Assembly: GCF_001677475.2 (NCBI RefSeq)
Contig: NZ_CP012497.1
Strand: one strand, 5' to 3'
Source of the DNA: Escherichia coli
GTDB taxonomy: Bacteria; Pseudomonadota; Gammaproteobacteria; Enterobacterales; Enterobacteriaceae
Length of the DNA stretch: 64,000 bases
The translations under genes and the position numbers were made by a program. Position 1 is the first letter of the stretch, and every line of letters starts with the position of its first letter. The notes beneath the pieces are model-generated. The model did not search any database. It was not told the origin of the DNA and worked only from the letters and a program-made list of their open reading frames with translations. Shown piece by piece: positions 22,998 to 60,778 of this stretch.

Positions 22998-23085
22998 GAC
23001 GACAATAACTCAGTCCGCCTGGCGCCGATTATTCTGGCCGGTTTTGTAACCTGAGTGTCATTTACATGATCCAACAGGAAATGGC

Positions 23086-24585
23086 GTGACGCTCAATACT
23101 TCTCAGGTCAGTTACTATATGACTCAGCGTAAGAAAGGTATAACTCAGCATATCTCGGCCATGAAGGCTGGTATCTCAGTCCGTTCTGGTCGTCGGATCG
23201 AAAAAGGAGAGTGGGCAAAAAACAGTGTTCGGCACTGGCGCACACGCAAAGATCCTCTGGAAGCTGTGTGGGACAGCATGCTTGTTCCTCTGTTGAAAGA
23301 GAGGCCGGCTCTGACACCAACAACTCTACTGGAGATGCTACAGGATAAATATCCCGGCCAGTACCCCAACAGCCTTCGAAGAACAATGCAACGGCGGGTT
23401 CGCGAATGGAAACTACAGTATGGTACAGAGCAGGAGGTCATGTTCCGCCAGCAACATCAGCCCGGCCTGCGAGGCCTGTCGGACTTTACTGAACTGAAAG
23501 GTGTAGTTGTCACCATCGCCGGTAAGTTGTTGGCGCATAAGTTGTATCACTTCCGTCTGGAATGGAGCCACTGGAGCTGGATGCGGGTTGTTCTGGGTGG
23601 TGAGAGCTTCTCTGCTCTGGCTGAAGGCCTGCAGGAAGCCCTCGGACAACTGGGCGGAGTGCCGGTAGAACATAAAACGGACAGCCTGAGGGCAGCATGG
23701 AAACAACAGGGCGAAGATGGACGCCGCGAGCTGACTGAGCGTTATGCTACTCTCTGTCAGCACTACGGAATGCAGGGCGTACACAATAATGCCGGTCGGG
23801 GCCACGAAAATGGCTCGGTTGAAAGTGCCCACGGACATCTGAAAAGGCGTATCTGTCAGGCGCTGATACTGCGGGGCAGTAACGACTTCAGCACCATAGA
23901 AGAATATCAGGCCTTCATCACTCAGCAGGTTATGCGGCACAACCGTAACAATCAGGATCTGGTCAAGGAAGAACGTCTTCATCTGAAACCGCTGCCGCTT
24001 CGTCGCAGTGCTGACTATGATGAGCTGACTGTGAGGGTTAGTCGCAGCAGTACCATCAATGTGAAGCACGTCGTCTACAGCGTACCTTCCCGGCTTGTAG
24101 GTCAACTGTTACGGGTCAGGTTATGGGACGATCGTCTGAGCTGTTACGTTGGCAGCAGCGAGGTCATGAGCTGCCCTCGCGTCAGACCAGAAAAAGGGAA
24201 GACGCGGGCCCGTCGTATCGACTTCCGACATGTGATCGACAGTCTGGCAAAAAAGCCCGGTGCGTTCTGCCATGCAACGCTGAGAAATGACATCCTGCCG
24301 GACGATGAATGGCGGAGGCTGTGGCGTCGCTTATGTAATCATCTGGAGCCCGATATGGCAGGAAGGCTGATGGTACATGCCCTGAAACTGGCTGCAGGAT
24401 ACGACGATATCTCAGTCGTGGCAAAAGGTATGGAGCAGATGCTGAATACCCCGGGAAACGTGGATCTGCACCGGCTGATGCGCTTCCTGGGTATAAAAGA
24501 AAAGGCGTTGCCGGTAGTCAATGTGATACAGCATAACCTGAGCAGTTATGAGCAACTACTGCGTGGCAAGGGAGGTTCGCAGTGA
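23086..24585 (+). CDS. istA: IS21-family transposase IstA
   Basis: 499 aa; N-terminal HTH and integrase-core-like region; followed by overlapping istB. Confidence 0.85.
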   Translation: MTLNTSQVSYYMTQRKKGITQHISAMKAGISVRSGRRIEKGEWAKNSVRHWRTRKDPLEAVWDSMLVPLLKERPALTPTTLLEMLQDKYPGQYPNSLRRTMQRRVREWKLQYGTEQEVMFRQQHQPGLRGLSDFTELKGVVVTIAGKLLAHKLYHFRLEWSHWSWMRVVLGGESFSALAEGLQEALGQLGGVPVEHKTDSLRAAWKQQGEDGRRELTERYATLCQHYGMQGVHNNAGRGHENGSVESAHGHLKRRICQALILRGSNDFSTIEEYQAFITQQVMRHNRNNQDLVKEERLHLKPLPLRRSADYDELTVRVSRSSTINVKHVVYSVPSRLVGQLLRVRLWDDRLSCYVGSSEVMSCPRVRPEKGKTRARRIDFRHVIDSLAKKPGAFCHATLRNDILPDDEWRRLWRRLCNHLEPDMAGRLMVHALKLAAGYDDISVVAKGMEQMLNTPGNVDLHRLMRFLGIKEKALPVVNVIQHNLSSYEQLLRGKGGSQ

Positions 24586-25337
24586 GCAATATCCATCACC
24601 TTGAACATAGCCTGCGTAAACTACGCCTGACACGAGTTGGAGCTGAATGGCACGCTCTGGAAAAACGAGCGCTGGCAGAAGGCTGGACACCATCGCGCTA
24701 TCTTCTGACGCTATGCAATGAAGAACTCCTGTGGCGCGAGAGTGAAAAACTGCGTCGTTATAAAAAGGAGGCCCGGTTGCCAGTTGCCAAAACGCTGAGC
24801 GAATACGACTTCAGTCAGGTGCCGGAACTGAATGGAGCTCAGTTCCGGCAACTCTGTGAAACGACAGACTGGGTTGATGCAGGAGAAAACGTTCTGCTGT
24901 TCGGAGCCAGCGGGTTGGGGAAAAGCCATCTGGCGGCAGCGATCGTGGATGGCGTAGTAGGTCAGGGCTACCGGGCCCGGTTCTACAGCGCAGGAGAGCT
25001 GTTGCAGGAACTACGTAAAGCCAGAGCTCAGTTGAAACTGAATGAGCTGCTACTGAAACTGGATCGCTACCGGGTGATAGTGGTGGATGATCTTGGCTAT
25101 GTCAAACGCGATAGTGCCGAAACGGGTGTGCTGTTCGAGTTAATAGCGCATCGCTATGAACGTGGGAGCCTGGTGATAACCAGTAACCATCCGTTCAGCA
25201 TGTGGGGCAGCATCTTCGTGGATGAGACTATGGCGGTGGCTGCGGCAGACAGGCTGATCCATCACGGATATATGTTCGAACTGAAAGGGGAAAGCTACAG
25301 GAAAAAGACAGCGAAGGCAGTAACAAGCGCGACTTGA
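24582..25337 (+). CDS. istB: IS21-family ATP-binding helper IstB
   Basis: 251 aa; Walker A GASGLGKSHLAAA and Walker B VIVVDDLGY. Confidence 0.85.
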   Translation: MSNIHHLEHSLRKLRLTRVGAEWHALEKRALAEGWTPSRYLLTLCNEELLWRESEKLRRYKKEARLPVAKTLSEYDFSQVPELNGAQFRQLCETTDWVDAGENVLLFGASGLGKSHLAAAIVDGVVGQGYRARFYSAGELLQELRKARAQLKLNELLLKLDRYRVIVVDDLGYVKRDSAETGVLFELIAHRYERGSLVITSNHPFSMWGSIFVDETMAVAAADRLIHHGYMFELKGESYRKKTAKAVTSAT

Positions 25338-25389
25338 TGTCGCCCTGAAGGGTGCGGCCAGTATAGTTGGCGCGAGTCGGCAAAACTAG

Positions 25390-26184
25390 TTGACGTCTAA
25401 TAGTGAGGCTAAAAAGTATGTCAGTGAAGAAGAACTTGAGCAGCTTGACCAACTACTTAAGCGATTCTCATATAACCCGCAGACACGCTGGCAAATGAAT
25501 CAGCGAAGTATGGGTTCGGTCCACGAGAAAGTGTTATCTGCCATGAACAGTGCGATCGCAAACTCATCCGTATCTGAAGAAAAAGCTCTTGAGTGGGCCG
25601 ACTCTTTTATCACAGAAGAAGTGGAAGAAGCCCGCGCTGGACAGAATGGTGGGATAGACCTGCGCAAGGAACTTGCTGATATTTATCGCCTGACCGGCGG
25701 GAAAATATCGACCTTATCAAAGGTAGTTCACCACCAGGGAAGGGCATATGCAAATCTAAATGGTGTTGTTGCTGTCAATTTGAACGATGAAAATGCAAGT
25801 GCACTGTGGCACGAGCTGGGTCATCATCTTGAGTACAGTAACCCTGGTTTGTTAGAGAAAGCCCGGTCATTCCTGAAGGCCAATGTTGAAGGGGATAAGC
25901 CATCTTTCGTCAATATCGGTGGGCGTGGCAAGCCTGAATGGTGCTTCAGATCTCGATTGAGTAATATTTATATGGCGAAGGTATACCCGCCAGCCTCAGT
26001 AAGTAACACCGGGAAAATTCGGCAGAAATCACCGACTATTTCCAAAACGTCAGCAACGGAAGTATTCTCTATGGCTCTTCAGTTGTATCATGACAAAGAG
26101 GCCGCTGCCGCATCACTGATGAATGGTGACGGATTGCTGGAACTGTTATTAGGTGTGGCAAAGGAGCTAAATAATGCAGATTAA
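25390..26184 (+). pseudogene. ddrB: ddrB-like gene, 3' part
   Basis: Frame continues from the upstream part once the IS and one copy of GTGAGG are removed (...GIIGE|AKKYVSEEELEQ...). Confidence 0.5.
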
Positions 26185-40770: not shown

Positions 40771-41015
40771 AAAAGCGATACTACACAGTAAAGCATGGGA
40801 CGCTACGAGCATTACAAGAGTTTGCTGATAAGCATAACGTTGAGGTGCGCAGGGAAGGGGGAAGTAAAGCTCTGCGGATGTACCGTCCGGACGGAAAATG
40901 GCGGACGGTCGTCGATTTCAAAACTAACAGCGTTCCCCAGGGCGTCCGCGACCGGGCATTCGAAGAATGGGAGCAAATCATCATAGATAATGCATTGCTC
41001 CTGAATATAGATTGA
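40767..41015 (+). CDS. Lxc/Bof-like small protein (by size and position)
   Basis: 82 aa, 4-bp overlap with the upstream ORF. Confidence 0.35.
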   Translation: MKKRYYTVKHGTLRALQEFADKHNVEVRREGGSKALRMYRPDGKWRTVVDFKTNSVPQGVRDRAFEEWEQIIIDNALLLNID

Positions 41016-41155
41016 TATACTTAAAGGTTGCGGTTACTGGCCCCTCTGATAGCCATACTCCATGAAGAGCAAACTTGTGAAGTTCCATATCTTCATGCGT
41101 TTCTTGGTCATGGAGTATTTATATTGTATAGGTAGATATTGTTTGAGTGCAGTTA

Positions 41156-41500
41156 TCACTGCATCGAGATGTAATTAGGACATGGTAATATACATTTCTT
41201 GAACGTACTATCTTTACCGGAGAACTTTATTCTCACATAAGGGGATAATGAAATATCTACCCAGAATGTGATGTCATTATGAATTCCTAACTTTTTGTAT
41301 ATTTTGTATTTCTGAAAAGAAACTGTTTTAATGCTGCGAAATCGGGACTTTGATATCTGAGTGATATTATATCCCTTTAATAATAACTCAAGTACGCTGC
41401 ATTCAGCTTCTGTCAATGATGCAGATATCCACACATGAACTGTAATATCATGCCTTTCTATATGTGCTTTTATATAACAAGTTTCTTTTTTATTATTCAT
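41156..41500 (-). CDS. LuxR/GerE-type HTH transcriptional regulator (small, no receiver domain)
   Basis: 114 aa; LTEAECSVLELLLKGYNITQISKSRFRSIKTVSFQKYKIYKKLGI matches the LuxR C-terminal HTH; AT-rich context. Confidence 0.55.
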   Translation of the reverse strand: MNNKKETCYIKAHIERHDITVHVWISASLTEAECSVLELLLKGYNITQISKSRFRSIKTVSFQKYKIYKKLGIHNDITFWVDISLSPYVRIKFSGKDSTFKKCILPCPNYISMQ

Positions 41501-41604
41501 TTTGTTAATATATATATCAAAAGATAGAAATAATGGAATATCGGTGTCATGGTAAAGAGCAGTCCATCCATGGTTCTGCTCTTTGTTCTTAGATGCTATT
41601 TAGT

Positions 41605-44600
41605 TCAGAAGGTATACTTCACACCCAACATTGCAGATGTGTCGTTATACCCTTTGTCACCGACTTGAACACCTACATTCCCCCACAGGTTCAGTCTGGA
41701 ATTTATCTGCCCCTCAACACCGGTTTTTATTTCTCCGATATTACGGGCACCGTCCTGATGTACCGTCACACCATTCATACGAGTACCAAAATCACGGGTG
41801 TTATGCAGCCAGTTCACTTCCACAAATGGGCTGAATTCCCGGGATTTGCCTTCATCTATACGACTGTGGCTTTTAATCCATGTTTTCACGCCCAGACGGG
41901 TACGGACATTACCATCTCCGGTGCTTTCAACACGGGTACCGTTGCTTTCGCGATGTTCGTCCGCTTTAACACCCATCCAGATGACCTGAGCCTGAGGCTG
42001 GACATACCACTCATTCAAACCACCTTGGCTGCCCGTAAACTCACCAGCCTTCCAGGTATAACCAGTTTCCAGTGATGCAGTAAGTCCTTTTGATTTCCAG
42101 GATTCACTCTGCAATCCATCACCTTTAACATAGTTATCAAACCAGCTGTACTGTGCCCAAGAGTCTAGGTAAGCCCCGTTATGTGTTTCATCATTGGCAT
42201 ACCAGGTGGCATACAGCCCAGTGCTGTAACCATTCACACTACCTTTTGAACGATATCCTGTGCGCACAGATTCTGTATTATTGTGGTCATTACCGTATCC
42301 GGCCATTAAGCCAAGATGCCAGCGATCCGTTTTATTCCAACCCCACTGTGCTATATCGCCGCCCAGTTGCATAACATAACGGTTGCTTTGTGTTTTTAAC
42401 TGGTTGCTTCCGTCGCGCCAGCGATTGTGTCCACCCTCATGACGCATCCACATGCTTGTAGTTTTCAATTCACCGGTAATCACATCGGTATACTGCATTT
42501 GCCCCTGACGTTCGTGTAGGCGAGTCACGAACATAGTATTTGCAGCAGCAATGTTTGCCGTATAGCTACCAGCTTCTGGGCGAAGATCATTGTCACCTGG
42601 TGTTGGGGTCGGATTTGGCTCCGGGTCCGGGTTCGGAGTTGGATCCTCAGGTTGTTTGCCACTAGTTAGGTACCAGTTGCCATTTTTATCGCCTTGCCCC
42701 CGCCCAAGAGTGTAATCATAAGCACCAGCCGCAATTCGGCCAACTTGTACAAAGTCACCGTTAGATTGACCATCAACCTGGATAATGTTGATGCCATTGA
42801 GTGTTTGTGCCCCAATACCACCAACGTTGTTTACGGAAACAAAGGTTTTACCCTCTGTATTTCCTTTTACAACCAACTTATCGATTGGAGATGTGTCGTC
42901 ACCAAGAACGCCTGAAAAGTAGATATAGCCATTTTCGCCAGTATAATCACCATTAATTGTTAAAGTGTTTTTTGCATCGCTGCCCAAATATATAGAGCCA
43001 TTATTATTAAGATGAGCAACATCCGAATCGCTAACCATATTCCAGATGCTGTTTTTAGCTAAATTAACAATGCCACCATTATACGCGGTTCCAGTCCAGT
43101 TGGAATTTTCTAATGAAAGATTGGCAATACTGTTACTATCAGCGCGAATATCGCCATTAAAGGAAGTATTCTTGACTGTAACATCAACGTTCCCTCCCAC
43201 ACCGGCATCATTACTGGTTGAGAAGATGAATGTGCCGTTATTCTTTATTTGGCTGCCATCTAACGTGGCGGAAATAGCACCACCATTAGCATTAAAGTTA
43301 TATCTAGTTTCGCTAATCATCACCCCATTCTCTTGGGTAAGCTCAACTTTTGCATTATTGGCAGCGACTACAGAGTCAGCCTCTTTTCCTGATACATGAA
43401 TGGATGCATTATTGCCACTAATAACTGTATTGTCATCACTGACCCATATTCCATGAGCATAATCACCGCTTGTTGTAATCGATGAACCAGAACCAAGTGT
43501 AATTTTTGCAGCTGAATTTGCTGTTGCTCCATATGAGTTTAGCCCCTTAGTAATAATCTGGGCTGTATGGGCATTAACAGTGGCTTCATTTTGTGCATTT
43601 ATACCGTATGAGTCAGTACCGGCTGTATTAATAGCTATTTGCTCGAAGCTAATATCAGCTACTTTACCATGCCCCCACACACCTATTGACTGATCACCTA
43701 ATGTGGCGATTGTTGATGTTCCCGTCAGCTCTACGCGTGAATCAGGTGCTGAGTCTGAGGGATTTAAAGCCGTAACATATATACCTTTGGCTGATGTGCC
43801 ATTTGTTTTTATTGAGATACTATCACCCGTTATTATACCACCATTACCACCGGTGATATGGATGGTATTAGCCTGCGTCCCTGATGTTTCAAGAGATGCA
43901 TTTACTCCAAGATTTATATTCCCATTATTAGAGGCAGTTACGGCATGAGCTTGTTTGCCAGAAGTGGTTACCTGGAGTCCTTTAGATACAGATATACTAG
44001 AGTTATTGCCATCTGCACGTAAACCATAGCCATTTTGGCCTGAAGTGGAAATATGAACATCAGCTAATTCAGCTGAGCCAGCTGACGATGCAGATACTCC
44101 CCAAGCCCCTGTTCCATCAGTTTTAATCTGCGTATTTGTTAGTGAAACATAACCGTTGTTTTCGGCAGATATGCCACGAGCTCCCCATGCTTGTGATGGT
44201 TTTTTATCCCCCAGAGTGGTAATGGTTGAGTCGCTAATTACTATTTTGCTATTTATGCCAGAGCTAACAATACCTCTGGCATTATCTCCAGATGTGGTAA
44301 TGTTAACTTTATTTAAACTGGCTTGGCCTCCATTTAAAATAGAAACACCACTAGCATTTACACCAGATGTGTTAATATCACCTTGTTCAACAGTTAGTGA
44401 AGATTTGTCAACATTAATCCCTGTAGCGTTTATCCCACTTGTTGTAATTGACATACCGTTAGCGATAGTCATTGAAGAATTATTATCAAGTGAAATGCCA
44501 GAGGCGTTTTTGCCTTTTGTGGTTATTGTAATCCCACCTTGAGAGTTAATTTTAGACCCACTGGATATATTAACTCCGTTTGCCTTATCACCTTCTGTAG

Positions 44601-44859
44601 ATAACGTCACTGTACCTTCGGTAGTTAGTTCACCTGAATTTGTGACAGAGATCGCATATCCATTACTTCCTGTATTACTGCCCGTATTAATATCGAGGTT
44701 ATCTTTATTAACTTGAACATCATTATCAATTTTAATAGCAGTTGTTGAAGCGTAAGCATTTGAAAATAATGCGCCGATTATAGCTGCCAGTAGGGTCAAG
44801 CGAGGAGAGTTCCCCCCTGAAGAGCTATTTTTTTTATTATTATAAACAGAAAGTGACAT
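41605..44859 (-). CDS. AIDA-I-type autotransporter adhesin (type Va secretion)
   Basis: 1084 aa; N-terminal signal peptide; about 700 aa of imperfect Gly/Ser/Thr/Asn-rich repeats; Pro-rich linker PEDPTPNPDPEPNPTPTPG; C-terminal beta-barrel ending GVKYTF. Confidence 0.85.
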   Translation of the reverse strand: MSLSVYNNKKNSSSGGNSPRLTLLAAIIGALFSNAYASTTAIKIDNDVQVNKDNLDINTGSNTGSNGYAISVTNSGELTTEGTVTLSTEGDKANGVNISSGSKINSQGGITITTKGKNASGISLDNNSSMTIANGMSITTSGINATGINVDKSSLTVEQGDINTSGVNASGVSILNGGQASLNKVNITTSGDNARGIVSSGINSKIVISDSTITTLGDKKPSQAWGARGISAENNGYVSLTNTQIKTDGTGAWGVSASSAGSAELADVHISTSGQNGYGLRADGNNSSISVSKGLQVTTSGKQAHAVTASNNGNINLGVNASLETSGTQANTIHITGGNGGIITGDSISIKTNGTSAKGIYVTALNPSDSAPDSRVELTGTSTIATLGDQSIGVWGHGKVADISFEQIAINTAGTDSYGINAQNEATVNAHTAQIITKGLNSYGATANSAAKITLGSGSSITTSGDYAHGIWVSDDNTVISGNNASIHVSGKEADSVVAANNAKVELTQENGVMISETRYNFNANGGAISATLDGSQIKNNGTFIFSTSNDAGVGGNVDVTVKNTSFNGDIRADSNSIANLSLENSNWTGTAYNGGIVNLAKNSIWNMVSDSDVAHLNNNGSIYLGSDAKNTLTINGDYTGENGYIYFSGVLGDDTSPIDKLVVKGNTEGKTFVSVNNVGGIGAQTLNGINIIQVDGQSNGDFVQVGRIAAGAYDYTLGRGQGDKNGNWYLTSGKQPEDPTPNPDPEPNPTPTPGDNDLRPEAGSYTANIAAANTMFVTRLHERQGQMQYTDVITGELKTTSMWMRHEGGHNRWRDGSNQLKTQSNRYVMQLGGDIAQWGWNKTDRWHLGLMAGYGNDHNNTESVRTGYRSKGSVNGYSTGLYATWYANDETHNGAYLDSWAQYSWFDNYVKGDGLQSESWKSKGLTASLETGYTWKAGEFTGSQGGLNEWYVQPQAQVIWMGVKADEHRESNGTRVESTGDGNVRTRLGVKTWIKSHSRIDEGKSREFSPFVEVNWLHNTRDFGTRMNGVTVHQDGARNIGEIKTGVEGQINSRLNLWGNVGVQVGDKGYNDTSAMLGVKYTF

Positions 44860-45343
44860 AGATAACCTCGAGTTTATACATTATCCGGATTTATAATAAC
44901 AGATGTTTTAGTTTACTGTGTGATTATGTTCTCGCAAATATTCATGCATTTCGCTGCACAAAATCGGAAAAATAATAAATAAGGAGGTTGAATAAATCAA
45001 TTATTCACTTTAAATAAATTTCAAATGAAAATCATTCAACAAATATATGCGATTAATGTGCATCGTTACATAAAAATCATGGAGACGCATTGAATTATTA
45101 TTCAATTATTGATTATGAAACAACCAGCTTAATATGCGTGCTATTAATTCCTCCATTTATCACCTTTATATCTACTGGTAATAGATGCTGAGGCTTGGTT
45201 AGTAAAATGTCTTCATTTGGTGTTGATGTTAATTTGTGTTTTTTATTGTTTTGTTTTTGTTTTTTATGTGTTTTGCAAATAATAATTTTTGGTTACCTTA
45301 AGTAGTAATTTGTAATTAGCTGCTTGGTGTAATAAGTTTGAAA

Positions 45344-46012
45344 TTAAAGGTAATCATATTTACCTGTGAGTAAGCCTTGCGGCACACGTGTTTCTCCCAT
45401 TCGTTGAGTAGCATTAATAATATTGATGAATGGCTCTATCAGCGAGGGCTCACGCTGCGTATTAATCCTACCAGCCATTGCCTGAATGTAGTGCGCGCTC
45501 ACCACGTTGTTGTATTCCGTTGCAAAGCAACATAGTAGCGTCAGAACGTGCTCTGTGGTTATTTCGCTCCAGTTGATGTTGAAAAATTCATCGCCTTTTT
45601 TGTCGTGTTCGGAATCGAAGATGCTTTGATGGAGAATGTACTTGCCGGACTCCTTGCGTGGTAACTTGATCGCTTTCTGGCGTTCCAGCTCCTTGTAAAT
45701 CTGCATTGCTTCAATCAGTACCGGCCTGCCGTTCATGAAGGGATCGCGCAACCTTACACGCTGGCCAACTCGACCAGTAATAAAGCTGTTTTCCTCTTCC
45801 ACCAGCACGATAAAACCCTTTTCCTCTTTTTCTCGCAATTCGCGCAGCAGCTGGAGTTCCATGTCGCGGCGGCGTTCAGGGTAGCTGGTCCGCTCAGCCA
45901 TTATCAGCTCGTTGTTGATCCATGCAGCAGTCATTGACGCCGGTTTGCCGACGTTCATCGAAACAACGCATATTTTCTTATCCATAGCTCCCCCTACAAA
46001 AAGAAAAGCCAC
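45344..46012 (-). CDS. Hypothetical protein (mat position)
   Basis: 222-aa ORF between the autotransporter island and ref. Confidence 0.35.
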   Translation of the reverse strand: MAFLFVGGAMDKKICVVSMNVGKPASMTAAWINNELIMAERTSYPERRRDMELQLLRELREKEEKGFIVLVEEENSFITGRVGQRVRLRDPFMNGRPVLIEAMQIYKELERQKAIKLPRKESGKYILHQSIFDSEHDKKGDEFFNINWSEITTEHVLTLLCCFATEYNNVVSAHYIQAMAGRINTQREPSLIEPFINIINATQRMGETRVPQGLLTGKYDYL

Positions 46013-47343: not shown

Positions 47344-48375
47344 CTAATCGCCATCTTCCAGCAGGCGCACCATTGCCCCTGTTTCACTATCCAGGTTACG
47401 GATATAGTTCATGACAATATTTACGTTGGTCCAGCCACCAGCTTGCATGATCTCCGGTATTGAAACTCCGGCACGGGCCATATCTCGCGCGGCTCCGACA
47501 CGGGCACTGTGTCCAGACCAGGCCAGGTACCTCTGGCCAGAGTCATCCTTAGCCCCGTAAATCAATCGGTGAGTTGCTTCAAAAATCCCTTCCAGGGCGC
47601 GAGTTGATAGCTGGCTGGTGGGTGATGGCGAGGCAACACCATTTTTTCTGACCCGGCAAAACAAGTAGTTATTCGGATCATCAGCCACACCAGAGACAGA
47701 AATCCATCGCTCGACCAGTTTAGTTACCCCCAGGCTAAGTGCCTTCTCTACACCTGCGGTGCTAACCAGCGTTTTCGTTCTGCCAATATGGATTAACATT
47801 CTCCCACCGTCAGTACGTGAGATATCTTTAACCCTGATCCTGGCAATTTCGGCTATACGTAACAGGGTGTTATAAGCAATCCCCAGAAATGCCAGATTAC
47901 GTATATCCTGGCAGCGATCGCTATTTTCCATGAGTGAACGAACCTGGTCGAAATCAGTGCGTTCGAACGCTAGTGCCTGTTTTGCACGTTCACCGGCATC
48001 AACGTTTTCTTTTCGGATCCGCCGCATAACCAGTGAAACAGCATTGCTGTCACTTGGTCGCGGCAGCCCGGACCGACGATGAAGCATGTTTAGCTGGCCC
48101 AAATGTTGCTGGATAGTTTTTACTGCCAGACCGCGCGCCTGAAGATATAGAAGATAATCGCGAACATCTTCAGGTTCTGCGGGAAACCATTTCCGGTTAT
48201 TCAACTTGCACCATGCCGCCCATGACCGGCAAACGGACAGAAGCATTTTCCAGGTATGCTCAGAAAACGCCTGGCGATCCCTGAACATATCCATCAGGTT
48301 CTTGCGAACCTCATCACTCGTTGCATCGACCGGCAATGCAGGCAAATTTTGGTGAACGGTTAACGATTTAGTCAT
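47344..48375 (-). CDS. cre: Cre tyrosine recombinase
   Basis: 343 aa, ...LTVHQNLPALPVDATSDEVRKNLMDMFRDRQAFSEHTWKMLLSVCRSWAAWCKLNNRKWFPAEPEDVRDYLLYLQARGLAVKTIQQHLGQLNMLHRRSGLP...; matches Cre apart from N-terminal residues. Confidence 0.95.
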   Translation of the reverse strand: MTKSLTVHQNLPALPVDATSDEVRKNLMDMFRDRQAFSEHTWKMLLSVCRSWAAWCKLNNRKWFPAEPEDVRDYLLYLQARGLAVKTIQQHLGQLNMLHRRSGLPRPSDSNAVSLVMRRIRKENVDAGERAKQALAFERTDFDQVRSLMENSDRCQDIRNLAFLGIAYNTLLRIAEIARIRVKDISRTDGGRMLIHIGRTKTLVSTAGVEKALSLGVTKLVERWISVSGVADDPNNYLFCRVRKNGVASPSPTSQLSTRALEGIFEATHRLIYGAKDDSGQRYLAWSGHSARVGAARDMARAGVSIPEIMQAGGWTNVNIVMNYIRNLDSETGAMVRLLEDGD

Positions 48376-49008: not shown

Positions 49009-49197
49009 TTTTCACCTCTGATTGATTGGTGGTGCTAAGTGCGCTACGCGAAATCTGGAGCACTAACACTGCCAACATTTCGCAGATTTTACGTAGCGCA
49101 ACCTTGATCAAATGATCAAGTGATCACTATTTGACCTGATAAGGTATTGAACTGTATGGATTTACAGGTAAATTGATCATGTTCAATAACCCTTAAG

Positions 49198-49231
49198 ATA
49201 ACTTCGTATAATGTATGCTATACGAAGTTAT
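49198..49231. other. loxP site
   Basis: Exact ATAACTTCGTATA-ATGTATGC-TATACGAAGTTAT (13-bp inverted repeats, 8-bp spacer). Confidence 0.95.
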
Positions 49232-49932: not shown

Positions 49933-50784
49933 ATGATAAATTATGTCTACGGCGAACAACTGTACCAGGAGTTCGTCAGCTTCAGGGATCTCTTTCTAAA
50001 AAAAGCTGTTGCACGCGCCCAACACGTTGATGCCGCCAGCGACGGTCGTCCTGTACGCCCGGTTGTCGTTCTACCGTTCAAAGAAACAGACAGCATTCAG
50101 GCTGAAATTGATAAATGGACTTTAATGGCGCGGGAACTGGAACAGTACCCAGACCTCAATATCCCAAAGACTATTTTATATCCTGTGCCTAACATCCTTC
50201 GCGGTGTACGTAAGGTTACGACTTATCAGACAGAAGCTGTGAACAGCGTCAACATGACCGCTGGCCGCATTATTCATCTGATTGATAAGGACATTCGCAT
50301 CCAAAAAAGCGCGGGGATCAATGAGCACAGTGCGAAATACATAGAGAACCTGGAAGCAACAAAAGAGCTAATGAAGCAGTACCCAGAGGATGAAAAATTC
50401 CGTATGCGCGTACACGGCTTTAGCGAAACAATGCTGCGCGTCCACTACATTTCCAGTAGCCCTAACTACAATGATGGTAAATCAGTTAGTTACCATGTGC
50501 CACTGTGTGGCGTGTTTATCTGCGATGAAACTCTCCGTGATGGAATTATCATCAACGGTGAATTCGAAAAAGCAAAATTTAGCCTTTATGACTCCATAGA
50601 ACCGATCATCTGCGACCGCTGGCCGCAAGCAAAAATATATCGCCTGGCAGATATTGAAAATGTAAAAAAACAAATTGCCATCACTCGCGAAGAGAAAAAG
50701 GTTAAGTCAGCCGCATCAGTTACGCGCAGCCGTAAAACTAAGAAGGGGCAGCCAGTAAACGACAACCCCGAAAGCGCGCAATAA
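49933..50784 (+). CDS. c1: C1 immunity repressor
   Basis: 283 aa, MINYVYGEQLYQEFVSFRDLFLKKAVARAQ...; matching operators throughout the window. Confidence 0.85.
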   Translation: MINYVYGEQLYQEFVSFRDLFLKKAVARAQHVDAASDGRPVRPVVVLPFKETDSIQAEIDKWTLMARELEQYPDLNIPKTILYPVPNILRGVRKVTTYQTEAVNSVNMTAGRIIHLIDKDIRIQKSAGINEHSAKYIENLEATKELMKQYPEDEKFRMRVHGFSETMLRVHYISSSPNYNDGKSVSYHVPLCGVFICDETLRDGIIINGEFEKAKFSLYDSIEPIICDRWPQAKIYRLADIENVKKQIAITREEKKVKSAASVTRSRKTKKGQPVNDNPESAQ

Positions 50785-50816
50785 ATTATGCCCGGCATCA
50801 ACCGGGCATTCTTCCA

Positions 50817-51932
50817 TTATTCAGCCGCCACCGGTTTTAACAAGCCAGCATCGAGCAGTTTACGCGTCAACCACTGTTGGCCTTTCCCCGTTAATTGAGG
50901 CGTCAGCCGTATCTGATAGCCATCTTCATCATCCAGCACCACTTCTCTCACTGTGAAATATCCGGCGTTTATGTACTGCTGAAACGGTACATTTTTACGT
51001 CCGCCGGACGCAATCAGGATGCCGTTCTCCCGTAACCAGGCAAACAGCGCATTTTGCTTAAGTCCAACAACCTTTGCAAAATTCCCAATCAGGATCCCCT
51101 TAGCCACTGATACCCGGTCGGCAAAATCGACTTTAGGGGCTGCGGCCACCAGCTGCTGATTTAGCTGGTGGGTTTTCTGTTCCAGAAGTTGCTTTTGTTC
51201 AGCCAGCTCGGCAGCCAGGCGCAGAGCTTCTGGAAGCGTCTGGGGGATTGCGATCGGTTGCTGTTCTTTTTGTCGGAAGTAGCTGTCTTCCAGTTTTTCA
51301 AAGAATGCCCATGCCTGATCTGTTTCGAGCATTTTTGCGTGACGGGCAGCTCCTCGTTCCGTCCAGAGGATGAGTGAGCGGGCTTTAGGAGAGATGGGAT
51401 TTTGTGAGTTACTTAAAGTCACCCGCAAATTGTTCAAATCATCTCCAATAACTTTATAGAAATGCTTGCCTTCACAAAAACGTTCAGCATTACGGGAAAA
51501 GTTCTTCTTGATGTTATCCGCATCGGTCCCATACCCCTTAGCAAGGATCTTGGTTGTCACTACACGCACTCCCAGCCATTCCAGAACGGGAATTTCATCA
51601 GACTGATTCTGAACAACCACCAGCTCTGACTCCTGAACTGAAGGTGCATGAACTTTTTCTGATTTAACGTTAGTTGCTTTCATTCTGTGTGCCTCCTTGC
51701 GTGTTTCGGCTGCGACGGTTGCGTAATTCAGATGCCCCTGTTCGAGCAGGTATTCGCGGATATCAGACAGCAGGATGCGGTGAACCGCGTTCTTGTCCTT
51801 TCTCCGGTAAAGTTGTTTGGTGATCATGAAGTAGTTGGCTATAACGCCTGGTATATCCCTGGTACTGATACAAGCAGTGTGCTGTTCAATTGCCTCGATC
51901 ATCTCTTCACGGGTGACTAATGACGTTCTCAT
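50817..51932 (-). CDS. ant1: Antirepressor Ant1-like (KilA-C / antirepressor C-terminal domain)
   Basis: 371 aa from MRTSLVTREEM...; its start overlaps the icd stop (ATGA); C-terminal DFADRVSVAKGILIGNFAKVVGLKQNALFAWLRENGIL. Confidence 0.6.
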   Translation of the reverse strand: MRTSLVTREEMIEAIEQHTACISTRDIPGVIANYFMITKQLYRRKDKNAVHRILLSDIREYLLEQGHLNYATVAAETRKEAHRMKATNVKSEKVHAPSVQESELVVVQNQSDEIPVLEWLGVRVVTTKILAKGYGTDADNIKKNFSRNAERFCEGKHFYKVIGDDLNNLRVTLSNSQNPISPKARSLILWTERGAARHAKMLETDQAWAFFEKLEDSYFRQKEQQPIAIPQTLPEALRLAAELAEQKQLLEQKTHQLNQQLVAAAPKVDFADRVSVAKGILIGNFAKVVGLKQNALFAWLRENGILIASGGRKNVPFQQYINAGYFTVREVVLDDEDGYQIRLTPQLTGKGQQWLTRKLLDAGLLKPVAAE

Positions 51933-52150
51933 AGTCCCTCCTGAGCACAAGCGTTTACAGGGGGGCACCAGTAACTGAGAGAATTGCGCAAATCGGTAGA
52001 AAAACGGGCGGAGAAAATACAGGGAGCATCCGGAAGCTGAGAACGTGCCTCATCTTCTGTTGGTGCGATAACGAAGTGATAGTGACGTTTCTGGCAGGAG
52101 TAAAAGCGCCAGATGAATTCAGGGTGAGCTGGGGTAGGGGTAGTAGCCAT
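51929..52150 (-). CDS. icd: Icd-like small protein
   Basis: 73 aa (MATTPTPAHPEFIWRFY...), strong SD AAGGAGG 8 nt upstream; translationally coupled to ant. Confidence 0.55.
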   Translation of the reverse strand: MATTPTPAHPEFIWRFYSCQKRHYHFVIAPTEDEARSQLPDAPCIFSARFSTDLRNSLSYWCPPVNACAQEGL

Positions 52151-52159
52151 AATGGCAGC

Positions 52160-52468
52160 CTCCTTAGACGTTGGTATGTAACCACCGCAGAAGAGACCAA
52201 TCTTGCTGGCGGTGGACTGTACGGAGTTGGCCTTACTGGCGTCCAAGGTAACCAGCCTACCCGAAGGTAGCCCCATACAGCCCACCATTGTAGAGGTGTG
52301 CGTGTACGCCGATACAAAAAAAGACGCGAGCGGCGTCTGTATCGCCTTAGACTTAAGCGGGAGGCCAATCCCGGCACCCGTTTTAATGAGGTGCCTGATC
52401 AGCATAAACCGAAAATGCCTCAAGGCGCAAGAGGTCAGGTTCAATGTAACATCGGTAGTTAAAAAACA
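52160..52468 (-). ncRNA. Candidate c4-like antisense RNA / structured leader of the icd-ant operon
   Basis: About 300 bp non-coding region upstream of icd, with a terminator-like hairpin and a repeat of the icd RBS-region sequence (CCTTAGAC). Confidence 0.3.
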
Positions 52469-52469
52469 C

Positions 52470-52486
52470 AATTTATTAGAGCAAAT
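52470..52486. promoter_or_regulatory. C1 operator variant upstream of the icd-ant region
   Basis: Reverse complement ATTTGCTCTAATAAATT. Confidence 0.45.
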
Positions 52487-52488
52487 AT

Positions 52489-53973
52489 TCATTCATTAAG
52501 CCATGCCAGAGCTTCATCAACCTGCGCTTCGTCTTCGACGCTAAGCACTTCATCCTGGGGAACATAATCCGCCAGCATAGCGAAACAATATGTATCCCAA
52601 TGGTCTGGTGAGTGCAGGTTGAGTTTTTTCTTCATATCCTCCTTACTCATCACCTTCCATTGACCTGCGGAGTTAATCCCTACAGGGATTTTCGACGCTT
52701 CCTCAATAGTTTCATTACCCTTATCCAGTCTCATACGACCAGATTTTACGGCCTCTGCGGCTTGAACGTTGGCATAAGCACGTTTATCAAAGTACAGGCT
52801 CTTATCTTCACGGCTATGCATCTTTTTACCCCAGCGTATACGCTGTACGGTAATACCATAATACTCGTACATCAGATCCGCCGTTGCTTTACCCAGGCCA
52901 TCGCCGTCTATCGCTATGGTGATATTGGGGAATCGCTCAGGATTACATTCTGCGAAAATTTTGGCAGCAAGCTGCGTTTCTGTAACGTCTGTGTATTCCA
53001 GCATTCGATAGTTGATTACACGGCGTTTATTTCGCTGGCCGGACACCATCATGATATTGATAACGGACTTATCCCGTCCCGTACCACCAGCAACGTCCAC
53101 ACATGCAAGCCAGCCCCATCCTTTGGCAATCTTGACTTTCCGCCGCGTTGCACGTTCAACCTCATCACGTCCAAGAAGGAAGCCATCCTGTGATTTAGGG
53201 AATAGGCCGCGTACCTTAATCATGTACATAGGGTTATCACGCCCGCCGTACTCCGCCAGCTTCATTTTGATAAATGCTGGCGTTACCAGCGGTGATTCCT
53301 CACTGTTAAGCGTGATCGCCGTATAAACGCCATCAGGGTTACCAGGACGCTTGGCCAGTTTATGGTGAGTATCGTAGAAATAGCCGCTTGGGCGTGTAGG
53401 CTGTGACAGCAATAAGATGCGGTTATCCTGTCCGGTAAGAGCACCGGTGATGATACCGAAAGCTCTATCACTGACACCGGAGGCTTCATCGATAATATAC
53501 AGAAGATGGTCTGCGTGTTCACCAGCGAGAGCTTCTTCACTTCCCAGACGAAAGCCCTTCGGTACTACAGTCCATACACCTTTACCAGTAACCTCATAGA
53601 AAGCGGTTTCTGTCAGAACAAAATAATCAGCAAGCCATGGAAAACGGCTGGTGGCCGTAGCCCAGTTTATCTTGATGTACTTGAATATACCGGTCATTAC
53701 CTGCTGAATTTTGTTCGCAACGATAATGGCGCGGGCACCGGGATACATGATTATGAACAACATGATCATGATAGAAGTCATGTCTGATTTCCCGGTACCG
53801 TGACCAGACGAAACAGATGTCTTGCTACCCTGTTCCTGCACAGACTCAATAATCAGATCCTGCTGCCAGGTAGGTGTTTTGCCGAACAAAACATCTGCCG
53901 CCGCAATCCAGTCATAACGATATAGCGCCACCAGCTCGCGCCAACGCGGATCCGTTACGCAACTTCTGGCCAT
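52489..53973 (-). CDS. pacB: Terminase large subunit PacB
   Basis: 494 aa; Walker A HGTGKSD, Walker B IIDEAS, C-terminal nuclease-like domain. Confidence 0.9.
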
Positions 53974-55166
53974 TAATCATCATCCCCGTATAGCTTGCGG
54001 GTAACTTCTTCGTCTTCCTCCTCGTCTTCGTCCAGGTCTTGTTCCAGCCATGGTTCGTTTGATACACCTTCAGTATCAACATCTCCATAACCGCCTGTAT
54101 CAACGATATCGGCGATTTCTTCCCTACGTTGCTCAATCCACAATGCGGCATCGGCGCGGCGGTTGGCGGCCCGTTCTCGCGCAACTTTGTCCAGATCTTC
54201 AAGAGAAGGGCCACCGACGGCAGTTTGCCTTTCCTCATCATCGGTATTGGTCTTAGGAGCACGCAGATCGGCTTTGATTTGCTCCAGCATCAGGGGCGGC
54301 ACTTTCCCACCATGCGCCTCGATGAATTCAGCTGCTTCCAGCACTGACCAGTTATTTTCACGCTTTCGTTCGTATGCCAGCTTAACAATGCCAGCTTGCC
54401 CCATAGATAAAGCGTGCTTTTCCGCCTCCCGGCTTTCTTTTCGATAGTTATTCCGGATGCTGTAAATGGTGTTGATCAGACTGCTTATCTGCGCGGAACA
54501 GCTGTTTAGCATGCTCGCGATACGGTATTCAGGCGGAGTACCTTCATCATCGTCTTTTTGCTGATCGCGCATTTCCTGCACCAGGCGAATACACGTATCC
54601 CTGGCGTTCTCCAGCATAATGAGATGAGAAAGAGACTTTTCCAGAAGAGTGGTTTCCAGAACATCGGCCCCGGACCGACGCAACATAGCGCGCGCGGCCT
54701 TCCGCGCTTCAACGTTATCTATCAGGTAATCGCCAGCTTCGAATTCAAAGCGTTCACCATCATCATCCAGGGTGTCGCGTTCCAGGCGATCACGTAAGGT
54801 CCGGTGGGCACGGGTGATCACGTCATGATCATCAGAACGATCATTTATGCGCTTATTTTGGCGCTTCGCATTCTCGACTGCGGCACTGACAACGGCATTA
54901 ACTCTTTGTTTTTTCGCTATTCCAGCCGCAATGTGATCACCTGCATGTTGATCATTAGAGTGATCAATGATCATGCTTTTTAGTGGCTTCCTGACTGGCT
55001 TATTTGGCTTGCGGCTGTCCGCTGTCCTGGTGTCTTCTTTGAAGGCACGGAGATAACGACGTGCGGTATTAGGGTTAAGATTAAACTCGGCGGCATACTG
55101 TGCGATGGTGTAACCACCATCTCGCGCCAGGCGAGCAAAATTCTTCTTGTGATCGTCCCAGGTCAC
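53973..55166 (-). CDS. pacA: Terminase small subunit PacA (contains pac site)
   Basis: 397 aa, acidic C-terminus; hexamer repeats inside the 5' third of the gene. Confidence 0.9.
54787..54975. other. pac packaging site (two clusters of TGATCA/G / GATC hexamers)
   Basis: GATC hexamers at 54787, 54815, 54826, 54838 and TGATCA at 54934, 54949, 54961, 54968, separated by about 90 bp. Confidence 0.75.
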
Positions 55167-55251
55167 TTATGCTTCCTTTCGTAAAAACTCTTTTTGACGC
55201 GAGGGTAACGAAAGTCACATGTCAAAAGGCCCGGAACGGGCAAGCAATCAA

Positions 55252-55704
55252 TCAGATACGTGCGGATGTGGCATTACCGTAATGACGGTGCTGACGGGCC
55301 ACCTTATTGAAAAGTTGACGCGCCATTACCCAAGGCTGGTGCTCCCGGCGTTCCTTTTCGTCCTGCGTCATATAGAGTTCGTTCTGGAGTTTTTCATCAA
55401 ACCGGCGCGGCGCGCGGCTGCGGCGAAAGAATTCAGGATTCAGAGAGTGGATCTGAAATCTACGTGGGCGTGTACTGTCATCAATCAAAACAGACGAATA
55501 CTTAGACACAGCGATAGCCTTTAAGCGCAGATAAACGTCGCGCTTATCGACATCCAGATGCGGGTATTCCTTTTCAAGGATTGCTGCGAGTTCTTTCGCT
55601 GATAGAAGAGATTTAGTGCGGATCATGTAATCCGCAATCTCATACGATGTTATTCGTGAGTGATTTATTTCCATGAAGTGGCGTCCCTGCCAGTTAAGTA
55701 ACAT
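55252..55704 (-). CDS. lpa: Lpa-like late promoter activator (by size and position)
   Basis: 150 aa directly upstream of pacA; preceded by a C1 operator. Confidence 0.55.
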   Translation of the reverse strand: MLLNWQGRHFMEINHSRITSYEIADYMIRTKSLLSAKELAAILEKEYPHLDVDKRDVYLRLKAIAVSKYSSVLIDDSTRPRRFQIHSLNPEFFRRSRAPRRFDEKLQNELYMTQDEKERREHQPWVMARQLFNKVARQHRHYGNATSARI

Positions 55705-55776
55705 CCTGTCACCTACTGATTAGCCCATGTCAACTAATCAACGTGCAATATAATACACTAGATTAAAGAAATATCA

Positions 55777-55791
55777 ATGCATTAGAGCAAT
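55777..55791. promoter_or_regulatory. C1 operator-like site upstream of lpa
   Basis: Reverse complement ATTGCTCTAATGCAT. Confidence 0.45.
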
Positions 55792-55792
55792 T

Positions 55793-56836
55793 TTATCTAA
55801 CACACGACGAATGACTTGTGATAGCGCCGACTCCAAGCGCGTAATCAAAGAACAATCGTTGATGCATCGCCAGCCTGCCGTGCGTTTTCTCCCAATTATC
55901 GCGGTCACGCTCAATATCACGCTGGCATGACTGGCACAGAGGAATTGCGTAAATGTCATGCGCGCATAATCGACTATGACGAACGATATAAGGCGTAATG
56001 TGAGCGCCAGCTCTCGCAGCTCCACAGCCACAGCATGGACGGGAAGCCACAAAGTCCATGTACTCGGGCAATTTTAGCGATTGAAGTTTTGGTATTTTGA
56101 AATGCGCCATACCTGGGTCGGAGTCAACATCCACAGGGCATACTTTTGCACGCATCGGCGCGGCGCGTTCTTCCATCATCTGAACATATGCTGTAGCGCG
56201 ATCGTCATACGGGCGAATATCCGCCTCTTTCAGAGGTCCGCTATCCTGCGTTGCAGCTTTCATCTTATTTATTGATATACGGCAGACTTCTTCCGGCATC
56301 AGGTGCATCATGTTGCGCATGAAAGCCCACCAGCACAGTTCCTGAATACTTAAATCATGGCCATCTGAAAGCCCCATTTCCTGACGGGCGACATCCAGCA
56401 TCCAGTTAACGCGATTATTATGCAGCGTTTCTTTCAGCTCATTAAAACCACGCATCCGGTAATGGTTATCGTGATGCCAGCACAACAACACCGCGCTATT
56501 GTCTCGTTCAGCGTGGACAATATGGTTGTCACACCAACTACGATCTGCGGCCTGGCATCGCCCCTCTTTCCTGCGCAACCACGCCACCAGCGCGTCAATT
56601 CCACCAATACGGCGAAACAGTTCATCGCTGTTAAAAAACGGCTGCAACGCCTCATTTGTTGCCATGGTTTGCTCGGAAACAACGAGGCCGTCGTCCATGT
56701 GCTCGATTAACTCACGCGGCACCGGCTCCATAATAAATTTACGGCCAGCCTCCACCAGCTTTCTGACTTCCTGATCCACTTTGAATGTGGCGAGGCCAAG
56801 CTCTTTTTGTACAAAGGGAGTAATTACGGCTTTCAC
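55793..56836 (-). CDS. Cys/His-rich hypothetical protein (pdcB position)
   Basis: 347-aa ORF with several Cys/His clusters. Confidence 0.4.
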
Positions 56837-58111: not shown

Positions 58112-58127
58112 AATACTCGCCTCTTAA

Positions 58128-58147
58128 TACTGTATATACATACGGTA
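58128..58147. promoter_or_regulatory. LexA (SOS) box upstream of humD
   Basis: TACTGTATATACATACGGTA vs consensus TACTG(TA)5CAGTA. Confidence 0.5.
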
Positions 58148-58442
58148 TATGTTGAAGCTATATATTTTTGAACTCTATCTCTTAAAAAAGATGTTAATAA
58201 GATGCTAACTATTGAAAGGCATAAATATATACAATTCCAACAAACGTTATTTTTAACAAATTTTTTCTCTCCGTTGACTTTTGCGAAAGCCTTGTCTGGC
58301 CTAAATTGCGCGGAAGCTACTTTTTCCTTCCTGAGTTATCCACAGAGTTATGCACTTGCATGTATAACCTATACACACTATCTTAATTCGCAAGACACTG
58401 ATGTTGCGGTATTGAAGGTTCATTGGGTTAAAAATAGACATT

Positions 58443-58473
58443 AAAAAGCCCAGTTGACTAGGCTGGGCTTTTT
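58443..58473. terminator. Rho-independent terminator-like hairpin (A-run / T-run flanked)
   Basis: AAAAAGCCCAG-TTGACTA-GGCTGGGCTTTTT. Confidence 0.5.
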
Positions 58474-58773
58474 AAGAGGAAACAGAGTTTGCGGCTCTGT
58501 TCCTGAGCCATAAGTATCTGGCGACTGAATTAAGATTAACCGAATGTACTGGATTCATCAAGAAACGTTGAGTGGTCATACCAGGTAATAATGACCATTT
58601 ACTAAACATCGTTGTTCTCAAAGAAGATTTAAGTCCAGGTTTTTGGTGACTCTAAAACCTTACCTTAACTCGAAATCGTGCCGTAAGTATCTGGCGACTA
58701 CAGATATTGCAACTGCAAAGGCAAGCCCAAAGGTATTTGCAGCTAGGCGCGATAAAACTAAGTGAGACCTGTT

Positions 58774-58857
58774 ATGGTTAACTTACTGTTCAAAATCGTG
58801 CCGCCGATGTTCGCGATTATCAAAGCGATCATTGAGTACGTAAACCAGCGTCCATAA
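58774..58857 (+). CDS. Candidate 27-aa hydrophobic peptide
   Basis: ATG...TAA encoding MVNLLFKIVPPMFAIIKAIIEYVNQRP, followed by a hairpin at 58871-58897; weak SD. Confidence 0.2.
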   Translation: MVNLLFKIVPPMFAIIKAIIEYVNQRP

Positions 58858-58912
58858 CGCTAGTTGCTACAGGCCCCATCAAGAGCATGGGGCCTCTTTA
58901 TCGTACTATTGC

Positions 58913-59578
58913 TTATTTTTTACGGACTGAGTTGTTCACTGCTCTGGCAATCTTCTCCCGCAATTGCTGCGTTCCGTGGTACTGAACCGCAATATCCCTC
59001 AACTCGTTCACCAGTTCTCGAATCTGGTGATCTTTAAGCTCATTATTTGGGTGATTGGTAACAACTCTGGTTAATTCACCCTTGTCTTTTGCTCTTACGT
59101 ATGCAGCTCTTGTGCATTCGACCCATGTATTACCGCCTACATTAACTTCGTAGATTAGGCTGGACTTATCTGTCAATTCGGAACAAATACGGGCCGTGGT
59201 CTGGCAACTAGAGCATTCGCAGTTATCGCGGAAACCGTGGTCTACTGGCTTCGGTTTCACATCATCAACTTTTTCTACCCTATTGGAATTTAAATACTTC
59301 GAAGCCTTGCTATGCCAATCGCTTGTTTTAGGATCTTGTCCATCCATCAAACGCCAGGCTTCAGCGATTAACTCATAACTAGTGACTGTAGCTTCCTGCG
59401 CATCACCAACAAGCCGTGTAATCTCTCTTTCAAGCCGACCGCCTAGCTCTGTTTTAGTGCAATGTTCTGACCAATCGCCAGCCTCAAGCAGCGCGAGAAT
59501 GCTTAAAATATCGTCCAATAGAACGGTAGTATTATCGACTTCCTTCTGAAACTCACCGGCTACTGATTTATGCATCAT
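58913..59578 (-). CDS. Hypothetical late protein
   Basis: 221-aa ORF in the minus-strand late operon. Confidence 0.4.
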   Translation of the reverse strand: MMHKSVAGEFQKEVDNTTVLLDDILSILALLEAGDWSEHCTKTELGGRLEREITRLVGDAQEATVTSYELIAEAWRLMDGQDPKTSDWHSKASKYLNSNRVEKVDDVKPKPVDHGFRDNCECSSCQTTARICSELTDKSSLIYEVNVGGNTWVECTRAAYVRAKDKGELTRVVTNHPNNELKDHQIRELVNELRDIAVQYHGTQQLREKIARAVNNSVRKK

Positions 59579-59781
59579 TCGTCATCCTCATCACAGGATG
59601 AGAGTAGTGGGTTAGTCATTCGCCCTACTTGAGTGGCGTAGCCACGCCGACAGAGATTGCGCAGCACACTGTATATTTCGAACATCTCGGTTCGTTCATC
59701 GCCAACATCAAGCTCAGATGCTATAGCGTGGCATTCAGTCGCGAGAGCCGATATTTTCTGAAATAACTCTGCTTTATTCAC
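59575..59781 (-). CDS. Hypothetical small acidic protein
   Basis: 68 aa, 4-bp overlap with the downstream gene. Confidence 0.3.
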   Translation of the reverse strand: MNKAELFQKISALATECHAIASELDVGDERTEMFEIYSVLRNLCRRGYATQVGRMTNPLLSSCDEDDE

Positions 59782-60046
59782 TCTTCGACTCCTGTGGCGG
59801 TTCTGGTAGTGGCATCCAGTGAGTTAGTTTCGATGCTGATTCTTCCCCATCGTCAGTGACTGCCCACCATTTGTTTCTCGACCAATCGTAATACCTTTCG
59901 AAGGTATCGCACTCAGTCCAGCCGTAAGACTTATCCATAAAAATGAAATGGACGCTAGCGCCAGCTTTTCGCTGTGCTTCCATCAGATGAACGAGATAAG
60001 CCGATGTTCGTCCACCTGAAAAGCTGACGACTTGATGCATACTCAC
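59774..60046 (-). CDS. PP-loop ATPase-like N-terminal fragment
   Basis: 90 aa with VVSFSGGRTSAYL (PP-loop motif) but too short for a complete PAPS-reductase/QueC-type enzyme. Confidence 0.35.
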   Translation of the reverse strand: MSMHQVVSFSGGRTSAYLVHLMEAQRKAGASVHFIFMDKSYGWTECDTFERYYDWSRNKWWAVTDDGEESASKLTHWMPLPEPPQESKSE

Positions 60047-60049
60047 GGT

Positions 60050-60778
60050 TTATTCCTGAATGCGCTTAAACTCGATTACCCACACCCAGGGATTAGCGTT
60101 CCAGCTTTCTTCGCCGTAGATGGACTCCCACAGACGCTGGAACGCAACCTTGGCCATTGCGAAGTCCCCATTGGGAGTAAGGAATGTTCCCGGGTAATCA
60201 GGAAGTAAACTTCCAGCAGGCGGAACGCCCTCAGCCCCTGCATCGCATTCGCTGATATCGTTCAACCGCTCAACGCGCACGTTGGTAATTTCCAACAGAA
60301 TGCGTGATGCCCATCGCGGCATGTGAATTGATGGACGCCACCCACCATCAAACTTTTCATTCACAGTGTGAGGTTTCCAGTCGGCATCATCGGGTATCGA
60401 CCATAAGCCGTAATCACCAGGCTTTTGCTCACAACTGGCCCGATAAATCCTTGCTGCGTTCTTCTCATCGCCACGACAAGGGTTGTCGTTCCAGTCCACA
60501 CTGCAACCATCCTCATTGCCTAATATCGCCCATGTTTCACGAACCCAAATTCGATCGCCGACGATACCAAAGGGGCAATTGAAAACACTGCTTACACCAT
60601 CAGCCCCGTACCACTGAAAACCTGCACCAATTTTTCTAACCATCACTGGTGCTTCTGGACCAACTTCCGCAGGCTGATTTTTCATTATCCGCCGCGTCTG
60701 CGTTTTCCTTCCTTCGAGGATGGCCCGGACCATCTCATCGTTGAAAATCATGCCGCGCTCTTTCACTTCGCCTTTCAT
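60050..60778 (-). CDS. Hypothetical protein
   Basis: 242-aa ORF with 4-bp overlap to the downstream gene. Confidence 0.4.
   Translation of the reverse strand: MKGEVKERGMIFNDEMVRAILEGRKTQTRRIMKNQPAEVGPEAPVMVRKIGAGFQWYGADGVSSVFNCPFGIVGDRIWVRETWAILGNEDGCSVDWNDNPCRGDEKNAARIYRASCEQKPGDYGLWSIPDDADWKPHTVNEKFDGGWRPSIHMPRWASRILLEITNVRVERLNDISECDAGAEGVPPAGSLLPDYPGTFLTPNGDFAMAKVAFQRLWESIYGEESWNANPWVWVIEFKRIQE

Follow-up and report, generated by a model that had tools for sequence, protein, structure and literature searches.

In phages P22 and SPP1, the pac site from which packaging starts lies inside the gene for the small terminase (gene 3 of P22 and gene 1 of SPP1). The minimal pac site of phage P1 is 161/162 bp long and contains seven hexamers organized into two sets, HEX4 and HEX3, according to PMC10028697, which cites Sternberg & Coulby. 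The read ends of P1 virion DNA coincide with the cleavage positions of Sternberg and Coulby (PMC5557969). Here we describe a locus in a 64,000-nucleotide stretch of DNA (the window), which its alignments identify as a P1-like (Punavirus) phage-plasmid, a mosaic relative of P1 that is distinct from P1 itself. We are highly confident, from the sequence comparisons described below, that the locus contains the pac site of this phage-plasmid, where headful DNA packaging would start.

The gene that contains the site is pacA, which encodes the pac-recognition subunit of pacase (53973..55166, minus strand, 397-aa ORF). The ORF coincides exactly with positions 90529–91722 of P1, and its product shares 96.2% amino-acid identity with P1 PacA, the two proteins differing in 15 of 397 residues. 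PacA has a full-length match to phrog_1711 'terminase' (E 2.6e-203) and an N-terminal helix-turn-helix, with a weak HTH_23 match at residues 10–44. As in P1, pacA is directly followed by pacB (52489..53973, minus strand, 494-aa ORF; P1 pacB 91722–93206), the gene for the large, terminase-type pacase subunit, the product of which matches phrog_2 'terminase large subunit' (E 3.3e-40). The two genes are driven by the late promoter LPpac, which consists of a -22 box and a -10 element (55202..55220, minus strand; P1 feature 90475–90493) and is, together with its surroundings, 100% identical to P1 over 131 bp. The gene for the late-promoter activator needed for LPpac, lpa, is located at the same position as in P1 (55252..55704, minus strand; Pfam BPP1_LPA, E 3.1e-57). 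pacA, pacB, lpa, and LPpac are all intact in the window. The site lies entirely within the part of pacA that encodes the linker, directly downstream of LPpac and upstream of pacB.

A motif scan of the window identified eight TGATCR hexamers inside 187 bp (54787–54973), which correspond to nucleotides 194–380 of the 1194-nucleotide minus-strand pacA ORF. Two of the hexamers are TGATCG on the minus strand (starts 54787 and 54838), and the other six are palindromic TGATCA (starts 54815, 54826, 54934, 54949, 54961, and 54968). Each of the eight contains a Dam GATC. The hexamers are divided into two groups of four by a gap of 90 bp (54844–54933), and the left group is composed of three tightly spaced hexamers and one outlier (54787–54792) positioned 22 bp from them. 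The scan thus bears out the first-pass annotation, which had described two clusters of four TGATCA/G hexamers about 90 bp apart and had placed them within the 5′ third of pacA. The window contains 257 GATC sites, 74 of which are in the TGATCR context. This corresponds to approximately 0.22 per 190 bp, and the Poisson probability of eight hexamers in 187 bp is approximately 1e-10 per position. Among 300 simulated sequences of 64 kb (first-order Markov), none had more than four TGATCR in any 190 bp. The clustering is well above chance. A density of at least four GATC per 100 bp is reached at one other place in the window, 49106–49175, which adjoins loxP. Within 54400–55400, all 11 GATC sites are in the TGATCR context, including three outside pac (54474, 54563, and 55151).

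The seven canonical hexamers of P1 pac have counterparts in the window that span 54815–54973, cover 159 bp, are arranged 4 + 3, and are all identical to those of P1. Homology to P1 places the predicted minimal pac, comprising HEX4, the core, and HEX3, at 54814..54975 on the minus strand, with approximate boundaries. HEX4, the set nearer to the promoter, is formed by four TGATCA hexamers (54934..54973, minus strand; pacA nucleotides 194–233), and HEX3 by TGATCG, TGATCA, and TGATCA (54815..54843, minus strand; pacA nucleotides 324–352). The eighth hexamer, the outlying TGATCG past HEX3 (54787..54792, minus strand), is also found in P1. It lies outside minimal pac, because the published site has seven hexamers, and is possibly an auxiliary element.

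The core of approximately 90 bp between the two hexamer sets contains the predicted binding site of IHF and the predicted cleavage positions. The IHF site, AAACAAAGAGTTA on the gene strand, is predicted by homology at 54899..54911 (minus strand; P1 feature 90784–90796), and its sequence is unchanged from that of P1. The primary cleavage positions, which are staggered, are predicted at 54882..54891 (P1 90804/5, 90806/7, 90810/11, and 90812/13), in a putative cleavage stretch, GTTGTCAGTGCCGC, that is likewise identical to P1. Both elements were mapped from the annotations of the P1 record using the relation window = 145695 - P1 coordinate, which follows from the gap-free match of the two sequences.

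Positions 54650–55200 of the window align to the opposite strand of P1 (AF234172 / NC_005856) with 98.7% identity over 551 bp. The alignment to P1 pac had been proposed as a check in the first-pass annotation, and it proved to be gap-free, with every hexamer identical. The suggested fit of the two clusters to P1 pac holds for this alignment and for seven of the hexamers, but the eighth falls outside the minimal site. Four substitutions separate the window from P1 in 241 bp, and all of them spare the hexamers, the IHF core, and the cleavage stretch. Two of the four cause amino-acid changes in PacA, E to G and E to K, adjoining the IHF site. The site resembles P1 pac in its gene, its position (pacA nucleotides 194–352), its seven hexamers, and its identical IHF core, cleavage stretch, and LPpac. 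By these comparisons, it is an already known site, an orthologous and nearly identical copy of P1 pac in which all of the sequence-level defining features are present, and no feature of the sequence speaks against this reading. Because every functional element is unchanged from P1, the site is ordinary and already understood.

The pac region belongs to a widespread type. Searches of the phage, plasmid, and E. coli genome collections with queries around pac found no sequence that reached 99% identity across the entire query; the highest identities were 98.7% (551 bp), 98.5% (4001 bp), and 97.9% (6001 bp, 50000–56000). Twenty phage records, and 553 of the 575 plasmid records with a match, are 95–99% identical in the 5′ region of pacA. 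These similar pac regions, with identities of 95–99%, include those of P7, RCS47, SJ46, phiW39, and hundreds of P1-like plasmids of E. coli and Salmonella. The wider 6-kb region (50000–56000) matches 856 of 5426 complete E. coli genomes, with at least 80% of its length matched in 228 of them. P1-like plasmids with this pac region are very common.

The P1 alignment covers 48.1 kb of the 64-kb window, and its matches range from 85 to 99% identity (megablast). The approximately 16 kb without a P1 megablast match includes blocks 1–1980, 22993–25402, 41007–45470, and 58113–60083; the place where P1 carries res/mod is among the unmatched blocks. The P1 dmt (dam-type methylase) region falls outside the window. 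The site could be a sequence-intact relic, carried by a plasmid derived from P1 that has ceased to make particles and in which pac is unused. Many P1-like plasmids lack lytic functions, for example pJIE250-3 (PMC6906374), 64 kb of the element is visible, and 16 kb of the window has no counterpart in the P1 alignment. However, not only pacA, pacB, lpa, and LPpac but also c1, cre, and loxP are intact, sizeable blocks of head and tail genes align to P1, and no hexamer has decayed although four substitutions accumulated nearby. We consider a relic unlikely.

The conservation of the site was analyzed in a set of 33 close relatives, comprising 31 IMG/VR sequences, P1, and the window, with 24 distinct sequences over pacA nucleotides 151–420. 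The seven hexamers are invariant in the set, save for TAATCA as the fourth hexamer in one sequence, and HEX3 is invariant in all 33. There are 19 columns that vary in at least two sequences in the pac region (nucleotides 190–355), and none of them is among the 42 hexamer positions (hypergeometric P = 0.0027; 33 relatives, 24 distinct). The eighth hexamer is present in 31 of the 33 sequences, and so is the cleavage stretch; the IHF site has three variants, each with a single-base change.

Two more diverged relatives, Cronobacter phage JK004 (PacA 70.3%) and a plasmid of Salmonella enterica subsp. arizonae (PacA 68.5%), share the exact nucleotide positions of six of the seven hexamers. HEX3 is kept in both, and three of the four hexamers of HEX4 retain their position. 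The DNA between the hexamers is 48–50% identical to the window, whereas the flanking parts of pacA are 72–82% identical. One hexamer changed in the diverged relatives from TGATCA to CGATCA, the opposite strand of which reads TGATCG. Conservation of both the IHF core and the cleavage stretch is recognisable. Neither JK004 nor the S. arizonae plasmid has the eighth hexamer at the equivalent position; both carry additional hexamers at other places downstream. The part of PacA encoded at pac is a charged, poorly conserved linker that follows the helix-turn-helix domain. The T immediately before GATC occupies the third (wobble) position of a codon, and it is kept in the diverged relatives even where the residue encoded by that codon changes (from N or G to R). 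Together, these comparisons support selection on the pac DNA rather than on the protein.

The hexamers might alternatively be a by-product of coding for Asp-His, Asp-Gln, and Asp-Arg (GAT CAx / GAT CGx) in the PacA linker. Most of them read xxT GAT CAx, which encodes D-H or D-Q, and D-Q and D-H also occur at the hexamer places of the diverged homologs. However, the hexamers use more than one frame (aTG ATC Att, GTG ATC ACC, and xxT GAT CAx), and they stay put, as does the wobble T, while the barely conserved linker protein diverges, which argues against coding as their origin. Moreover, synonymous recoding of the hexamers reduced the titre of P1 about 9-fold (PMC10028697), and this published experiment has already largely refuted the coding explanation, which we regard as highly improbable. 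It is also very improbable that the GATC cluster serves Dam/SeqA-type regulation or sequestration, acting on pacA-pacB transcription or replication timing rather than on the start of packaging. P1-type elements do use GATC clusters for regulation elsewhere, with Dam sites annotated in oriR, ahead of kilA, and in the region that regulates cre, and the window's one other GATC cluster lies upstream of cre. However, the cleavage and IHF sites annotated in P1 are located between the hexamer sets, in sequence that is identical here, the P1 virion termini map to the cleavage positions (PMC5557969), and such a role would not really be a separate function, since the pac model already includes methylation.

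Very distant homologs of PacA were identified by tblastn on a Citrobacter freundii plasmid (27% identity) and a Xenorhabdus bovienii megaplasmid (32%). Both genes are located upstream of a terminase gene and next to a parM partition gene, and both have TGATCR clusters in the 5′ portion of the gene or shortly ahead of it. The Citrobacter plasmid, pRHBSTW-00697_3, has 11 GATC in the TGATCR context within 510 bp (Poisson P ~1e-12 relative to the rest of the locus), clustered at 1423–1480 and 1654–1733 of the extracted locus L006, including a set of four hexamers positioned directly upstream of the start codon of its pacA homolog. The megaplasmid of X. bovienii CS03 has four within 510 bp (Poisson P 0.006 relative to the rest of the locus), arranged as three plus one with an additional near-match, in clusters at 1644–1679 and 1832–1854 of locus L007. 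The clusters in Citrobacter and Xenorhabdus may be pac sites of different geometry. We hold it evenly balanced whether the TGATCR-hexamer design is peculiar to P1 or was ancestral to the PacA terminase family as a whole. If it is ancestral, Dam-gated initiation of packaging would be widespread in enterobacterial phage-plasmids, with variable geometry, and the eighth hexamer of P1-like elements could be a working auxiliary site. What is mildly new here is that the hexamers outlast a diverging linker and that comparable clusters are present in far-diverged homologs of PacA.

The loxP site of the window is an exact 34-bp match (49198..49231, minus strand) and is collinear with P1 across lox. It is located 5.7 kb from the predicted cut, on the pacB side, which is well inside a terminal redundancy of approximately 10 kb. 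Packaging of P1 reportedly runs from pac towards lox, with lox within the terminal redundancy of the first headful (Bachi & Arber 1977; Yarmolinsky & Sternberg 1988; Lobocka et al. 2004). On this basis and given the position of loxP, packaging in the element probably proceeds towards lower coordinates, in the direction of pacA transcription. The direction is the least secure part of our interpretation. A full-text search of papers other than the primary P1 ones found no explicit packaging direction. The proposal in the first-pass annotation that the site gives both the start and the direction of packaging therefore stands for the start, which is marked by the P1-identical site, but not for the direction, which is unreadable from sequence alone.

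In the predicted direction, pacB, ash/ant, c1, loxP, and cre would be packaged in this order from pac, and the terminal redundancy of the first headful would hold all of them. The first headful would carry loxP at both ends, enabling circularisation mediated by Cre. The region beside pac in the direction of packaging would be the likeliest to be over-represented in particles. c1 is located at 49933–50784 on the plus strand and cre at 47344–48375. The ash/ant segment (50817–52492, minus strand), located between pacB and c1, is an insertion absent from P1. It contains two genes, one encoding an Ash-family protein of 187 aa (PF10554), and the other an anti-repressor of 383 aa with ORF6N and KilAC/ANT domains (phrog_63). 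RCS47 and pTZ20_1P are reported to carry an insertion of this kind (PMC6906374). Because of the insertion, the distance from pac to loxP is 5.7 kb here, compared to 4.0 kb in P1.

Beside loxP, the cre regulatory region (49105–49231) contains four TGATCA, at 49174, 49121, 49113, and 49105. P1 has three annotated Dam sites in the cre region and TGACCA at the fourth position. The window thus has one GATC more than P1, beside the two at the P3cre promoter.

In the PhageTerm paper, for which P1 was assembled de novo, the virion termini of P1 fall at 54885 and 54891 of that assembly (PMC5557969). These numbers are equal to those of the plus-strand cleavage positions mapped by homology in the window, which we treat as a coincidence. 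If the window were the PhageTerm P1 assembly, the 'left' terminus would imply packaging towards higher coordinates, opposite to the direction given above. We rejected this identification based on the 15 of 397 PacA residues that differ, the ash/ant insertion, and the P1 matches of 85–99% identity.

The mechanism that we propose for the site is by analogy to experiments on P1 (Sternberg & Coulby 1987–1990; Skorupski et al. 1992–1994), summarised in part in PMC10028697. Late in infection, pacase, composed of PacA and PacB, would bind to the hexamer sets. IHF or HU would bend the core and bring the two sets together, and pacase would make staggered cuts over approximately one helical turn, at 54882–54891 in the window. 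Cutting would be conditional on the methylation of the GATCs on both strands, and hemimethylated sites would be bound but left uncut. Because a hemimethylated pac is not cut, fresh replicas would be spared, and only some of the pac sites in a concatemer would be used. One of the cut ends would be protected and fed into a prohead, and the later cuts would be made by headful measurement. The site represents no new biology, because this mechanism was worked out in P1 between 1987 and 1994.

For annotation, the value of the analysis is that the predicted packaging start of this P1-like phage-plasmid is placed at 54882–54891. The pac site is also a ready-made part for the design of P1-type phagemids. 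Like the pac sites of P22 and SPP1, the site is a signal that lies within the coding sequence of the DNA-recognition subunit, and it belongs to a system of processive, one-directional headful series with imprecise cuts. To our knowledge, the pac sites of P22 and SPP1 are not built of GATC hexamers, and we know of no gating of these sites by Dam and no homology between PacA and the small terminases of the two phages. In having closely spaced GATCs, the methylation of which gates a protein-DNA transaction, pac resembles P1 oriR, the cre promoter region, and E. coli oriC. However, the output at those sites is the initiation of replication or promoter activity, whereas that of pac is double-strand cleavage by the terminase.
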